NCBI GenBank assembly: GCA_963662405.2
Contig: CAXXKT010000003.1
Span: forward strand, 224,001 to 288,000
Length of the DNA stretch: 64,000 nt
Reading direction: 5' to 3'
Origin: Syntrophales bacterium
GTDB lineage: Bacteria > Desulfobacterota > Syntrophia > Syntrophales > UBA2210
Under the pieces are notes generated by a model that was not told where the DNA came from, made no database searches, and was given only the letters and a program-made list of their open reading frames with translations. Each line of letters opens with the position of its first letter. Positions within the stretch are counted from its first letter, which is position 1. Positions 31,509 to 56,277 of the stretch are shown in pieces. The position numbers and the translations under genes are program-made.

Positions 31509-32270
31509 ATGGATATATCAACTATCTTGGGAATTATCTTCGGGTTTGGACTTGTCATCGTTGCCATGGGTCAGGGCGGGGGATTGCAGTGGTTTTTCAA
31601 TGTCCCCTCGGCGATGATCGTTCTCGGTGGAACGATCGGTGCCGTTTTTATCAATTATCCCCTGTCTGATATCCTCGGGGTGGCAAAGGTGGCGAAGAAC
31701 GTGCTTTTCCCTCAGGATCTGAATACGGAAACGGCGATCAAGACATTGATCGAGATGTCGAAAATCGCCCGGCGCGACGGGATCCTGGCCCTGGAGGACA
31801 AGATGGAAGAAATCAAGGATCCCTTTTTTACCAAAGGGGTGATGCTGATGATAGACGGTGTCGAGCCGGCCGCTCTCTCCCGGATTCTGAATACGGAACT
31901 CGAATACGTCGCAGAGCGGCACCGGATGGGGGCGGAGATATTCATGACCATGGGAAATTTTGCCCCGGCCATGGGGATGATGGGGACCCTCATCGGGCTG
32001 GTGAAGATGCTGATGCAGATGGATGATCCCTCCTCTATAGGACCGGCCATGGCGGTCGCCCTCCTCACCACCTTTTACGGGGTCATCCTGGCGAATCTGA
32101 TTTTTCTCCCGGTGGCCGGGAAGCTGAAGACACGGAGCGCCGCCGAATTGACCGTCAAACAGCTGGTCATACACGGGATCTTGTCCGTTCAATCCGGCGA
32201 CAATCCGCGGATACTGGAAGAAAAACTTCATTCATTCGTATCGCCTGATGAGAGGAAGAGCACATTCTAG
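31509..32270 (+). CDS. motA: stator A subunit (MotA/PomA)
   Basis: RRDGILALE, APAMGMMGTLIGL, ALLTTFYG; start moved to ATG 31509. Confidence 0.95.
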   Translation: MDISTILGIIFGFGLVIVAMGQGGGLQWFFNVPSAMIVLGGTIGAVFINYPLSDILGVAKVAKNVLFPQDLNTETAIKTLIEMSKIARRDGILALEDKMEEIKDPFFTKGVMLMIDGVEPAALSRILNTELEYVAERHRMGAEIFMTMGNFAPAMGMMGTLIGLVKMLMQMDDPSSIGPAMAVALLTTFYGVILANLIFLPVAGKLKTRSAAELTVKQLVIHGILSVQSGDNPRILEEKLHSFVSPDERKSTF

Positions 32271-32272
32271 AA

Positions 32273-32962
32273 ATGGAAGGGGAAACGTTTCAGAGAAGAC
32301 GGGAGGAAGAACCTCCGGTCGCCGGGTGGCAGACGATATACTGTTCCCTTGCCCTGATCCTGGTGGCCTTCTTTGCCATGCTTGTTTCCTACTCAAGCAT
32401 CGAGGAAAAAAAGCTGACAATCTTCAGGAAGGGACACGGTATCCTTGAAGATGGGAATCCTTTGTCAGCCTTCGATGCAAAAAAGGCGTTGCGAAAGGTC
32501 GCGGAAGAACGTCAAGAACGCGTGGATGCGGCGATTGAAGTTCTCAATGGGTACTGCAAGGCAATGGGTTTGGGAGAGATGGTTCACACGGAGATCACCG
32601 CCCGAGGATTTAGGACTACCTTTGCGAGCAGCATCTTTTTCCCGTCAGGGCTGGCCGTGATCAGGAAAGAGGCGTATCCCAATCTCGACAAGATAGCCGG
32701 GATAGTGAAAGAAGGGGGATTCTCCCTCCGTGTCGAAGGGCACACGGATGATGTCCCGATCAATACCCGCCAATTTCCTTCGAACTGGGAACTGTCGACG
32801 ACCCGGGCGGTCAATGTCCTGCGGTATCTGTCTGAGAGAGGAAAGATACCTGCCAAGCGTCTTTCCGCGGTCGGATTCGCACAGTATCAGCCGATTGTTT
32901 CAAACAAAACCCCCGAAGGGAGACAGAAGAACAGGCGGGTCGTGTTTGACTTTGCATTATAG
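32273..32962 (+). CDS. MotB-like protein lacking the conserved TM Asp
   Basis: TM WQTIYCSLALILVAFF; OmpA-like domain VEGHTDD...NWELSTTRA...NRRV. Confidence 0.88.
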   Translation: MEGETFQRRREEEPPVAGWQTIYCSLALILVAFFAMLVSYSSIEEKKLTIFRKGHGILEDGNPLSAFDAKKALRKVAEERQERVDAAIEVLNGYCKAMGLGEMVHTEITARGFRTTFASSIFFPSGLAVIRKEAYPNLDKIAGIVKEGGFSLRVEGHTDDVPINTRQFPSNWELSTTRAVNVLRYLSERGKIPAKRLSAVGFAQYQPIVSNKTPEGRQKNRRVVFDFAL

Positions 32963-32994
32963 CAGAGCGAGTAGCGCCGGCAAAGAGGGAACAG

Positions 32995-33792
32995 ATGAAG
33001 CAGAGACAGACGGAATCCGAAAATCAGGGAGGAAAATGGCTTCTCACCTTTAACGACATGGTGACGCTGCTTCTGACCTTCTTTGTCCTGATCCTCTCGC
33101 TCTCAAAGCTTGATGCGCCGAAACTGGGGAAAGCGGCCTCTTCCATGCGGGCCATATTCAATCTGTCGGAACAGGGTGTGCAGGAGAAAGTCGAGGTCTT
33201 TACCCCCTTTGTTCTTCCCCTGGGGAGCGATATGCCCCGGAGAAACTCAATCGTTGCGTTCGAGAAAAAACAATTCAGCCTGGTGGAACGCATTAACGAG
33301 AAAGCACGGCACATAGCGGCATTGGGACGGGGGGGAAAATCTCCCGTTCCTGGTGAAGACCTTCTTTCTTGGGAAAGAGTGATGGAGGCCCGGGTGGCAG
33401 AGGAAGGGGTTGCCGTTTCTCTGGGTGAACAACTCCTGTTCGAGACGGGTTCCGCCAAGATCGCCGGAAAGCGGCAGCCGGCCCTCGACGCGCTCTGCTC
33501 CATCCTTCGGGAGATGGATTGCCGGATACGGGTCGAGGGGAATACGGATGAAGTCCCTATCAACACCGAGCAATTTCCCTCGAACTGGGAGCTTTCAGTG
33601 GCACGGGCCGTGAGTGTCGTCAGGTATTGTATCTCCAAAGGTGTCGTCCTGCCGGAGCGGCTATCGGCGGCGGGATATGCGGATTTTCGACCGCGTGTCC
33701 CGGCGCTCAACGAGCGGAACAGGGGGTTGAACCGGCGGGTAGAAATCCTTGTGATCTTGAGTGGGAATGAAGGAGGAAGAAAAAATGGCTGA
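32995..33792 (+). CDS. motB: stator B subunit (MotB/PomB)
   Basis: TM WLLTFNDMVTLLLTFFV with Asp21; OmpA-like domain NWELSVARA...NRRVE. Confidence 0.92.
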   Translation: MKQRQTESENQGGKWLLTFNDMVTLLLTFFVLILSLSKLDAPKLGKAASSMRAIFNLSEQGVQEKVEVFTPFVLPLGSDMPRRNSIVAFEKKQFSLVERINEKARHIAALGRGGKSPVPGEDLLSWERVMEARVAEEGVAVSLGEQLLFETGSAKIAGKRQPALDALCSILREMDCRIRVEGNTDEVPINTEQFPSNWELSVARAVSVVRYCISKGVVLPERLSAAGYADFRPRVPALNERNRGLNRRVEILVILSGNEGGRKNG

Positions 33793-34279
33793 AGAAGAGA
33801 AGGAAGGGCAACAGGAGGAAACCACTTCCGGTAAAGGAAAGAAATCCGGCCTCAAGTGGGTCATTGCGCTCTTCGTGATCATAATCATCGGGGTCGGTGT
33901 GGGGGTTGTCGGGTGGAAGTACTATCAATTGCGTCTTTCCGGTCCGTCCGAAAGGGGGGAGACGGAAGCCGTTCAGGAACCCGGCATCTGGGCGATGGAC
34001 CCCATTGTCGTCAATCTGATGGATGATAACGGTGAGCGGTATCTCAAAACGACCCTCCAGATCGAGGTATCCAGCCAGGAATGTATGGCGGAGTTGGAGC
34101 GTCTGAAACCAAAGGTGACGGACAATATATTGGTCCTTCTTTCATCCAAGAGATACAAGGAGATCGCCGGTTTTGAGGGGAAACAGGATCTCAGGGACGA
34201 GATCGCCGTCCGTCTCAACCGGTATCTGGCCAAGGGGCAGGTCAGGAGGATCTATTTTACCGAGTTTCTTATACAGTAG
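33785..34279 (+). CDS. fliL: FliL
   Basis: N-term TM, IVVNL, C-term IYFTEFLIQ. Confidence 0.92.
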   Translation: MAEEEKEGQQEETTSGKGKKSGLKWVIALFVIIIIGVGVGVVGWKYYQLRLSGPSERGETEAVQEPGIWAMDPIVVNLMDDNGERYLKTTLQIEVSSQECMAELERLKPKVTDNILVLLSSKRYKEIAGFEGKQDLRDEIAVRLNRYLAKGQVRRIYFTEFLIQ

Positions 34280-43391: not shown

Positions 43392-44106
43392 AGACAACGA
43401 ACGTGAACAACTGATCATACAGTATATCCCCCTCGTCAAGAATATCGTCGGGAGGATTGCCATGAGACTCCCCTCTCACGTGGGGAAAGACGATCTTGTC
43501 AATGCCGGGATTATCGGACTGATGTCGGCCTTGGAAAAGTATGACGAAACACGAAATGTCCTCTTTGAAACGTACGCGGGGTTCCGGATACGGGGGGCCA
43601 TCCTGGATGAGTTGCGGTCGAGGGATATCGTCTCCCGATCGGACAGAAACAAGGAGACGCGTATTGAGGAGGCCTTTGAGGTATTGCAGAAAGAACTCAG
43701 CCGCAATCCGACGGATGAAGAGGTCGCAAAGCACCTTGATCTATCTCTCGACGACTATTATAAGATGATCAATGATGCAAAAGGGGTCTCTATCCTGAGC
43801 AGCGATGATCTCCCTCCCGATTACTGTGAGAAGCACTCCCAGTCGGAGGTCCTGGAGAAGATCGACGAGAATAACCCCTTTGCTCTCCTGTCTCGGATCG
43901 AGCTGAAAGATACGTTGCGGGATGCCATCGAGGCCCTCCCCGAGAAAGAAGGACTGGTCCTGTCGCTTTATTACTATGAAGAGTTGACATTGAAAGAGAT
44001 CGGTTTAGTCTTGGAACTGTCGGAATCGAGGATCTCACAGCTCCATTCGCAGGCGGTCCTGAGGCTCCGGGGAAGCTTAAGGAAGGTGCACTATGAGGCT
44101 GATTAA
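43384..44106 (+). CDS. fliA: flagellar sigma factor sigma28
   Basis: RIRGAILDELR, LYYYEELTLKEIG...ESRISQLH. Confidence 0.95.
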   Translation: MAEDNEREQLIIQYIPLVKNIVGRIAMRLPSHVGKDDLVNAGIIGLMSALEKYDETRNVLFETYAGFRIRGAILDELRSRDIVSRSDRNKETRIEEAFEVLQKELSRNPTDEEVAKHLDLSLDDYYKMINDAKGVSILSSDDLPPDYCEKHSQSEVLEKIDENNPFALLSRIELKDTLRDAIEALPEKEGLVLSLYYYEELTLKEIGLVLELSESRISQLHSQAVLRLRGSLRKVHYEAD

Positions 44107-44566
44107 TTTCCTTTCCCCCGCCCGGTGTTTCGGAGGGATACTCGTCACCGGATGCCTGCTTTTGATCCTTCTGCTCGCGGCAGACGGGAATGCATCCGGC
44201 GGTCATATCCGGGAAATCGCCCTCCCGGGATCTATCAGTGAGTCCTCCGCGGAAAGATTCGTCGGCGGGGAGGGCCCCGGCGGGGAGCATTTTGAACGGT
44301 TTGGCGATTTTACCATTCCCCTGAAAGACGCCGCGGGGGGAGACAGGATCCTGGTATGCACCATGATCGTGGCGTTGCATCGAGGGATGGATCTGCCGGA
44401 AGAAAGAACCGGGCTCCGCACGGTTATCTATCGGGTATTGCGGGAACGATCGGGTGCGGCTGAGATGGAAAAAGGACTCAGAAAAGATATCAAAGAACGA
44501 TTGAATATTGCCTTGCGGGGCGATAAGGTACAAGACATCTATTTCACGAGATTTGTCTTATTGTAA
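44093..44566 (+). CDS. second FliL-like protein
   Basis: N-term hydrophobic segment; C-term LRKDIKERLN...VQDIYFTRFVLL parallels the FliL C-terminus. Confidence 0.7.
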   Translation: MRLINFLSPARCFGGILVTGCLLLILLLAADGNASGGHIREIALPGSISESSAERFVGGEGPGGEHFERFGDFTIPLKDAAGGDRILVCTMIVALHRGMDLPEERTGLRTVIYRVLRERSGAAEMEKGLRKDIKERLNIALRGDKVQDIYFTRFVLL

Positions 44567-55050: not shown

Positions 55051-56277
55051 ATGGTCATGCGGGTATCGGAAAACACCAAGTACAGCTCGATCGTCAATAA
55101 TCTCTTCAAGACCCAGGACAGCTATGCCGATTTGATGAAAAAGGTGTCCTCGCTCAAGGAGGTCAATTGTCCGTCCGATGATCCCGTCGGGATGACCAAG
55201 ATACTGAATCTCAGGGAATCTCAAGCCTCCGTTGAACAGTACAAACATAACATCGAAAGCTGTGAATCATGGCTCACGATTACGGAATCCAAGCTATCGT
55301 CCGTGGGTGACCTGTTGGTCAATGCCCGGGAGGTGGCGGTCAGACAGGCCACGGGGACGGCGACCGCCGAGACGCGCAGCATGGAGGCAAAGACCGTAAA
55401 ACAGCTCATCGACGAGATGCTCACCCTGGCCAATGCCAAATATAATGGATCCTATCTCTTCTCGGGCTCAACGTCGGGTACGGCCCCCTTCTCATCGACA
55501 GGGAGGGATTCAGCGGAGATAGCATCTGCCGCGGCTTCCGGAGGGAATGCCTTCGACGGAGTCGTTACCTCCGGCGGCACCTATACCGGGTCGGAGAACA
55601 AGACGTATGTCGTCAAGATCACCGATTGGAACGAAGGGACCCGGACGGCGACGTACGATGTATCGGCCGACGGCGGGGAAAGCTGGTCAACAACGGGGTC
55701 AACCGTTGTCCTCCCGGACGGTGGTTCGGTGACGACGGGCGATCTGGGTGACGGGATCACCCTCACCTTCGATGATGCCGGTACTGTCGAACCGACAGCG
55801 GGTGACATCTTTTCCATTGATGCCTTTACTGCAGGATATTACAACGGTAACGGCGAAGAACTGTCAGTGAATATCGGCGAGGATACATCATTCACGTACT
55901 CCATTTCCGGCCAATCGGCCTTTACGGACGAGGGGGACGGGGACGTGGATATTTTCGGTGTCCTCAACTCGTTGAAAGAGGCACTGGAGAATAACGATCA
56001 GGAGGGTATCTCCCACGTGCTGGGTGATCTCAAAACGGCATCCGATCAGGTGTCGACCGCTATCTCAACGTGCGGAACGAGGACGATCCGGCTGGAAATT
56101 GCCACCACCAATCTGTCCGATATGGAGCTGAATCTGGCGGAGTTGATCTCCGAAACGGAAGCTGTCGATATTTCCGAGATCATCACGAAGCTGTCCATGA
56201 AAGAGATCGCCCTGCAGGCCTCGTACGGCTTGGCGGCGAAGATAGGGAATATGACGATACTCGATTGGCTCGGATAA
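55051..56277 (+). CDS. flgL: hook-filament junction protein
   Basis: PSDDP, ANAKYNGSYLFSG; follows flgK. Confidence 0.95.
   Translation: MVMRVSENTKYSSIVNNLFKTQDSYADLMKKVSSLKEVNCPSDDPVGMTKILNLRESQASVEQYKHNIESCESWLTITESKLSSVGDLLVNAREVAVRQATGTATAETRSMEAKTVKQLIDEMLTLANAKYNGSYLFSGSTSGTAPFSSTGRDSAEIASAAASGGNAFDGVVTSGGTYTGSENKTYVVKITDWNEGTRTATYDVSADGGESWSTTGSTVVLPDGGSVTTGDLGDGITLTFDDAGTVEPTAGDIFSIDAFTAGYYNGNGEELSVNIGEDTSFTYSISGQSAFTDEGDGDVDIFGVLNSLKEALENNDQEGISHVLGDLKTASDQVSTAISTCGTRTIRLEIATTNLSDMELNLAELISETEAVDISEIITKLSMKEIALQASYGLAAKIGNMTILDWLG

Follow-up and report, generated by a model that had tools for sequence, protein, structure and literature searches.

The flagellar gene cluster contained in a 64,000-nucleotide stretch of DNA from a Syntrophales bacterium (hereafter the window) encodes two unlike MotB proteins in tandem behind a single MotA, and the first of these, designated here MotB′, lacks the ion-binding aspartate of the transmembrane (TM) helix, an arrangement that recurs across many related sulfate-reducer and syntroph genomes. 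The three genes would encode a Na+-driven stator of the composition MotA5-MotB-MotB′ with one aspartate, a reading to which a probability of roughly 55% is given from sequence comparison and structure modeling. The broader proposal, that a widespread natural flagellar stator of this kind makes torque with a single ion-binding aspartate, using five ions and 72-degree steps per turn, is more tentative and is placed somewhat short of even odds.

The large flagellar cluster has the gene order flgE, motA, motB′, motB and fliL at this point, with motA to fliL all on the forward strand. The motA gene (31509..32270) encodes a stator A subunit of 253 aa that is of the PomA/MotP (Na+) type according to NCBIfam, motB′ (32273..32962) a protein of 229 aa with a TM segment, a plug-like segment and an OmpA-like domain, and motB (32995..33792) the Asp-bearing partner of 265 aa; the start of fliL (33785..34279; Pfam FliL, E 4e-24) overlaps the end of motB. 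Only 2 nt separate motA from motB′ and 32 nt separate motB′ from motB, and a scan of these intergenic gaps detected no promoter or terminator signals above chance; motA, motB′ and motB are probably co-transcribed. Also in the window are a second FliL-like gene after fliA (44093-44566; Pfam FliL, E 7e-8) and two Flagellin_N matches (204-611 and 55063-55470), namely a flagellin, which the source genome thus possesses, and a weaker second match, probably FlgL of the junction between hook and filament. Elsewhere the source genome carries a second, divergent motA-motB pair (G000:C1:2103030-2104625; L002) in which the Asp is present (WLLTMSD), with no recognizable flagellar genes among the neighboring ORFs listed; the motA of this pair forms a long branch with that of L021 in the MotA tree.

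The TM segments of MotB′ and MotB can be aligned without a single gap, and the two proteins are 31% identical overall. The MotB′ helix (W19-Y40; 32327..32392) contains the conserved sequence WxxIYCSLxLILVAFF and no acidic residues, and its Ser25 (TCC, 32345..32347) lies opposite Asp21 of MotB (GAC, 33055..33057), the sole stator aspartate in the operon. The N-terminal profile of MotB′ also aligns without gaps to the solved PomB (8BRD), W18..D24 of PomB matching W19..S25 and Ser25 falling on PomB Asp24, and no other letter is seen in the Ser25 codon in contigs from two public runs (one sample, possibly the source). The initial annotation had described the tandem paralogues behind one motA, the gapless helices, the Ser/Asp exchange, and an intact MotB′ reading frame with a canonical peptidoglycan motif (GHTD, NWELS..RA, NRR) next to GNTD in MotB, and all of this is confirmed by the ORFs, their position before fliL, pairwise alignment and the codons themselves. 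It had missed the usual loss from MotB′ of the residue equivalent to PomB Thr21, the Na+ type of MotA, and the fact that GNTD is a local trait of this partner MotB, both key peptidoglycan residues being intact and most partners having GHTD.

The OmpA-like domain of MotB′ clears the cut-off for PF00691 (E 2e-19) and has D159 and, with the GHTD motif (32738..32749), R178. Against Pfam MotB_plug (PF13677) the protein scores 21.1 bits with a cut-off of 24, its orthologues falling above and below that value. The AlphaFold2 model (pLDDT 81) finds its best fold matches in the periplasmic domains of MotS and PomB, MotS 9LJL being the first (E 6e-16). MotB′ therefore has the OmpA-like domain of a stator B subunit, and its gene immediately follows motA among flagellar genes, but with Ser25 in place of the ion-binding Asp the protein is to be classed as a MotB paralogue and not as a canonical conducting MotB. 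The partner has the TM Asp within a W..TFND motif (T18, N20, D21), together with the plug (PF13677, 55 bits) and the OmpA-like domain (PF00691, 48 bits).

Conservation of the missing aspartate was followed through several samples, in which the loci include kin and are not independent. Position 25 is Ser in 112, Ala in seven and Cys in one of the 120 best homologues of MotB′, a set biased towards the query, and the TM helix is highly conserved; as Asp occurs in none of them, the objection that close orthologues retain it does not hold. The consensus columns of this set likewise show neither Asp nor Glu within W+2..W+21. A class-level sample of 251 genomes gave 58 with matches to the MotB′ N-terminal profile, all of which were fetched; an Asp-less MotB is encoded in 57 of them, at 58 loci since one genome has two, and the other match is an ordinary single motB. 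The Asp-bearing partner follows directly in 54 of the 58 loci, the remaining four ending at contig ends. A search of representatives of 50% identity clusters found Asp at the position in 58 of the 150 listed (of 161) and not in the rest.

A sample free of selection on the trait was obtained by ranking MotA matches in 401 genomes of the phylum and taking 90 loci, comprising the top 30, the next 40 by rank (five already sampled were skipped) and 20 lower-ranked ones. The order motA, Asp-less motB′, Asp-bearing motB was found in 51 of these, with MotB′ cut by a contig end in two more and the Asp copy cut in one; both copies have Asp in two, a single Asp-bearing motB is present in 21, and motA lies directly before fliL in 13. 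An Asp-less copy alone was found in no complete locus among the 90. Pooling the loci of the phylum gives 116 distinct tandem pairs, of which 108 have the Asp-less copy first and the Asp-bearing copy second and eight have Asp in both; the second copy is Asp-less in none of the 116. The conservation among related motA-motB-motB loci on which the initial annotation had made its reading depend is therefore found, and the 108 pairs span 30 family codes and three named records. At the Asp position their first copies have Ser (84), Ala (21), Gly (2) or Thr (1), and since neither Asp nor Glu occurs within W+2..W+21 in any of the 108, an error of register cannot hide an Asp, which is present in all 108 partners. 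Wider searches return other types of locus: a GTDB pattern scan gave, among the matches listed, mostly ordinary MotBs, with a tandem in three of 80 loci, and a PF13677 search of the phylum gave canonical single motBs throughout, with the tandem Asp-less pair in none of 30 loci. The motif of the partner covaries with the type of MotB′, Trp-bearing MotB′ occurring mostly with FND and Trp-less MotB′ with FSD, LSD or FAD, a covariation that is confounded by phylogeny; the residue before the Asp (motif at 33046-33057 in the window) is a coiled-coil core position. One genome bin (G528; 6% contamination, possibly mixed) has two different motA-motB′-motB loci (L175 and L180).

Nei-Gojobori dN/dS was calculated for 68 non-independent pairs picked by motA dS (67 for motB′), with medians of 0.09 for motA, 0.29 for motB′ (range 0.06-0.89) and 0.26 for motB (range 0.07-0.68). 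The ratio for motB′ is below one in all 67 pairs, the pooled uncorrected pN/pS of the TM segment is 0.20 for motB′ and 0.15 for motB, and Ser at the Asp position is encoded by each of its six codons. Thus MotB′ appears to be under purifying selection, with a constraint similar to that on its conducting partner.

MotA has its best NCBIfam matches in MotP/PomA (E about 1e-81), with scores that fall short of the equivalog cut-offs, and contains T160, T187, T188, M157, R88 and E96. Judged by motif and a constant offset of +2, T160, T187, T188 and M157 would correspond to T158, T185, T186 and M155 of PomA, where the three threonines define Na+ stators and M155 acts as the ratchet (PMC10374538). By this correspondence MotA has the three threonines of the Na+-driven PomA/MotP type, and coupling of the stator to Na+ is probable. 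The 104 MotAs that have an Asp-less partner retain these threonines and the rotor-contact charges, with T160, T188, R88 and Met or Leu at 157 in all 104, T187 in 101, and Glu (81), Gln (22) or Asp (1) at position 96. PomB contributes T21 and D24 to Na+ site 1 (PMC10374538); the T21 equivalent (W+3) is Thr or Ser in 105 of 108 partners and Thr in only 13 of 108 MotB′ proteins, which, being also without the Asp, generally lack both ligands of this site. In a FastTree phylogeny of 122 MotAs, every one of the 48 tandem or split rows falls, along with four single-MotB rows, into one clade (SH-like support 99), so that MotAs of this clade can work without MotB′; one alignment-based query found a second full-length MotB in none of five single-motB genomes of the clade. 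The MotB′/MotB pair accounts for the only MotB_plug matches in four of four genomes of the same family, and a fifth, more distant genome has five such matches.

MotB and MotB′ were modeled alone with ESMFold2, from alignments of 18 and 14 rows, with three controls. The median score of three runs was 0.74 (best control 0.00), a value that gives no ranking of the heterodimer above either homodimer, MotA being outside the model, and that may reflect likeness or memory since homodimers of MotB and PomB have already been solved. The pair exceeds the pass mark, a level attained for 116 of 157 solved complexes and for two of 215 mismatched pairs. The runs agreed in no fewer than 93% of contacts, and the pLDDT of the partners was 81 or higher. 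The predicted interface is formed by the TM helices and the OmpA-like domains and includes N20 of MotB and C24 of MotB′, D21 and S25 not being listed; the residue equivalent to Asn20 and Cys24 in Escherichia coli MotB, A31, belongs to the coiled-coil core (bioRxiv 2023.03.05.530362). Of the options put forward in the initial annotation (a heterodimeric stator, or a brake, anchor or scaffold), the predicted heterodimer is the best supported.

The peptidoglycan-binding roles of an Asp and an Arg in both MotB copies are presumed from OmpA-like domains. These residues were scored in 103 Asp-less pairs, five of the 108 being left out with truncated partners; they are kept in both copies in 72 pairs and are lost from MotB′ only in 15, from both copies in 13 and from MotB only in three. 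Among 80 single MotBs they are kept in 78 and lost in two, and the relaxation within pairs fits redundancy of anchoring within one unit. In the 28 pairs in which MotB′ is without the Asp/Arg its TM helix is nevertheless kept. Both MotBs have degenerate peptidoglycan motifs beside a conserved MotA in loci L182-L187, L191, L192, L194, L197, L198, L200 and L201, where attachment to the wall must be achieved in another way or have been given up.

In the mechanism proposed for MotA5-MotB-MotB′, the central axle of one Na+-driven stator unit would be a heterodimer, in which MotB would provide the only ion-binding site (Thr18/Asp21, like T21/D24 of PomB). MotB′ would complete the coiled-coil axle with its own helix and would add a plug-like segment and, in most cases, another peptidoglycan-binding domain, but it would bring no carboxylate, so that the Na+ ions admitted by the MotA threonines would meet a single Asp on their way. 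It is speculated that the MotA ring would then step once per subunit, the five ions and 72-degree steps of each turn replacing the action of two alternating aspartates; assembly of the heterodimer is inferred, and both the step size and the ability of a unit with one Asp to produce torque are speculative. A one-Asp unit may not turn, because published models require two aspartates that alternate in the 5:2 cycle (bioRxiv 2026.04.14.718414; bioRxiv 2023.03.05.530362; PMC9389320), each turn then taking 10 ions and proceeding in 36-degree steps (PMC9389320; bioRxiv 2026.04.14.718414). This is the main difficulty for the proposal and also the reason why the MotB/MotB′ system would be a useful test. 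Against a heterodimer it can further be held that the partner MotB, with its Asp and peptidoglycan motif, is complete alone in 87 of the 103 pairs and could act as an ordinary homodimer, and that TM chimeras of Aquifex MotB1 and MotB2 each function singly in E. coli (PMC4525482).

The self-sufficiency of most partners also favors the foremost alternative, unlikely in our estimate, in which MotB′ is a placeholder or assembly factor that forms an inactive, non-leaky pre-stator with MotB or MotA, or in a variant aids the folding and anchoring of MotB, torque being delivered by MotA5B2 homodimers. The two-Asp mechanism would stay intact, and the adjacency of the genes, the selection on MotB′ and the predicted contact with MotB would all be accounted for; however, a peptidoglycan motif is kept by MotB′ in 75 of 103 pairs, and a safety plug should not tolerate the Asp that the first copy has in eight of 116 pairs, in one case nested among Asp-less kin.

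The initial annotation had also considered a brake or an anchor, and non-conducting MotA5B′2 or mixed units could act as a brake, clutch or filler by taking up places in the motor, by anchoring it or by titrating MotA. The MotB′ of the window, with its intact TM helix and canonical peptidoglycan motif, would suit such a role, an Asp-to-Asn MotB is known to block ion flux (Caulobacter D33N; PMC7885107), and Borrelia has neutral stators that are retained in the motor, although these are made by another protein, FapA (bioRxiv 2026.10.14.759253). The retention of MotB′ proteins that have lost the ion-binding Asp and, in 28 of 103 pairs, the anchor residues does not fit easily with MotB′2 as an anchor by itself, and with the tight spacing and the gaps free of promoter or terminator signals above chance, separate regulation is not evident. 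Together with the Asp-bearing first copies, the loss of the anchor residues weakens the pure form of the anchor or brake proposal, and such a role is considered doubtful.

It is quite improbable that the heterodimer has two ion sites, Ser25 or the nearby Glu/Gln20 taking the place of the Asp in Na+ handling with the help of the MotA threonines. In PomA, threonines suffice to coordinate Na+ at site 2 (PMC10374538), Ser is found in 84 of 108 loci and through all six of its codons, and position 20 is Glu in 89 of the 120 close homologues. The position is, however, Ala or Gly in 23 of 108 loci and the T21 equivalent is Thr in few MotB′ proteins; Glu/Gln20 was rejected as a general replacement acid, W+1 being acidic in only 16 of 108.

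Finally, a decaying duplicate or a sequencing error is very improbable and was rejected, as the initial annotation had anticipated for decay, for although some lineages show elevated dN/dS and degenerate periplasmic domains, intact Asp-less orthologues (the conservation that is the main argument against an error) occur in 57 genomes of the class-level sample and in about 30 family codes across the phylum, where they precede an Asp-bearing partner, with a strongly conserved TM helix and dN/dS below one throughout.

The homodimeric stators PomA5PomB2 and MotP5MotS2 (Vibrio, 8BRD; Bacillus subtilis MotS, 9LJL) share with the present system a PomA-type MotA in which the positions of the threonine filter and of the Met ratchet recur, a B-subunit architecture of TM helix, plug-like segment and OmpA-like domain, and a flagellar operon context with fliL. 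They differ from it in that two unlike B genes accompany each motA here and in that MotB′ is without the Asp24 and usually the Thr21 equivalents by which PomB binds Na+. The layout of one motA and two tandem motBs is known from the motA/motB1/motB2 operon of Aquifex aeolicus, which encodes a Na+-driven stator (PMC4525482; PMC4987623). The periplasmic regions of Aquifex MotB1 and MotB2 are likewise divergent (23% identity), whereas their TM segments are 97% identical (PMC4525482) and those of the 108 Asp-less pairs have identities of only 0.21-0.42; the eight both-Asp pairs look like the Aquifex ones. Because the TM chimeras each work in E. coli, both Aquifex MotBs presumably keep the Asp, and no proposal that they form a heterodimer was found in the accessible portions of the two reports (PMC4525482; PMC4987623). 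Heterodimeric axles from two adjacent paralogues have been predicted for 5:2 motors, namely the Myxococcus gliding motor AglR5-AglQ-AglS, by structure prediction (PMC11761067; PMC9389320), and the TPH-vWA motors, with heterologous axle pairs (PMC12204202), but these are of the TolQR/ExbBD type and not flagellar, and both of their axle subunits are described with the aspartate. Tandem motB genes and predicted heterodimeric axles are thus already known; an Asp-less tandem MotB was not found described in the literature searched, which covered few subscription papers and no supplements, and the main text of a survey of MotAB evolution contains neither "aspartate" nor "heterodimer" (PMC12505986).

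If the one-Asp reading is true, an alternating two-aspartate cycle would not be required in 5:2 motors and sister lineages could be compared, since one-Asp and two-Asp versions exist in close relatives, such as L272 and L285 of one family. Removal of a single site is hard in a homodimeric axle, and the separable motB and motB′ genes would allow single-site mutations. Should MotB′ instead be a placeholder or brake, it would represent an undescribed stator regulator across much of the phylum that is annotated only as MotB or OmpA-family protein.

In the eight both-Asp pairs the TM segments of the two copies have identities of 0.54-1.0 and the periplasmic regions of 0.24-0.38. Those of L297 (762-2343) have identical TM segments (24/24) and those of L285 (771-2188) near-identical ones, the periplasmic regions being about 33% identical and the silent sites diverged. 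Only about 50% of the third positions are identical (11/21 in L297, 7/16 in L285), leaving recent gene conversion unsupported, and the likeness may stem from either old conversion or shared constraint. The Asp-bearing first copy of L285 nests inside the Asp-less clade in a tree built without the TM segment (SH-aLRT 97/96; 98 in another tree), which suggests that Asp was regained or lost several times in parallel, and shows that the helix of a first copy can carry an Asp, as expected of an axle helix. First and second copies were not separated as two clades in the MotB trees without the TM segment, which at their low resolution of the deeper branches are compatible with one origin of all first copies and with several. 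Where motA lies directly before fliL (L249, L250, L255, L257, L264, L265, L269, L276, L279-L282 and L311), the two motBs adjoin elsewhere as a pair, both with Asp, in five of five genomes tested (L325-L329), and the unit that is kept, even apart from motA, is therefore the pair of MotB genes.
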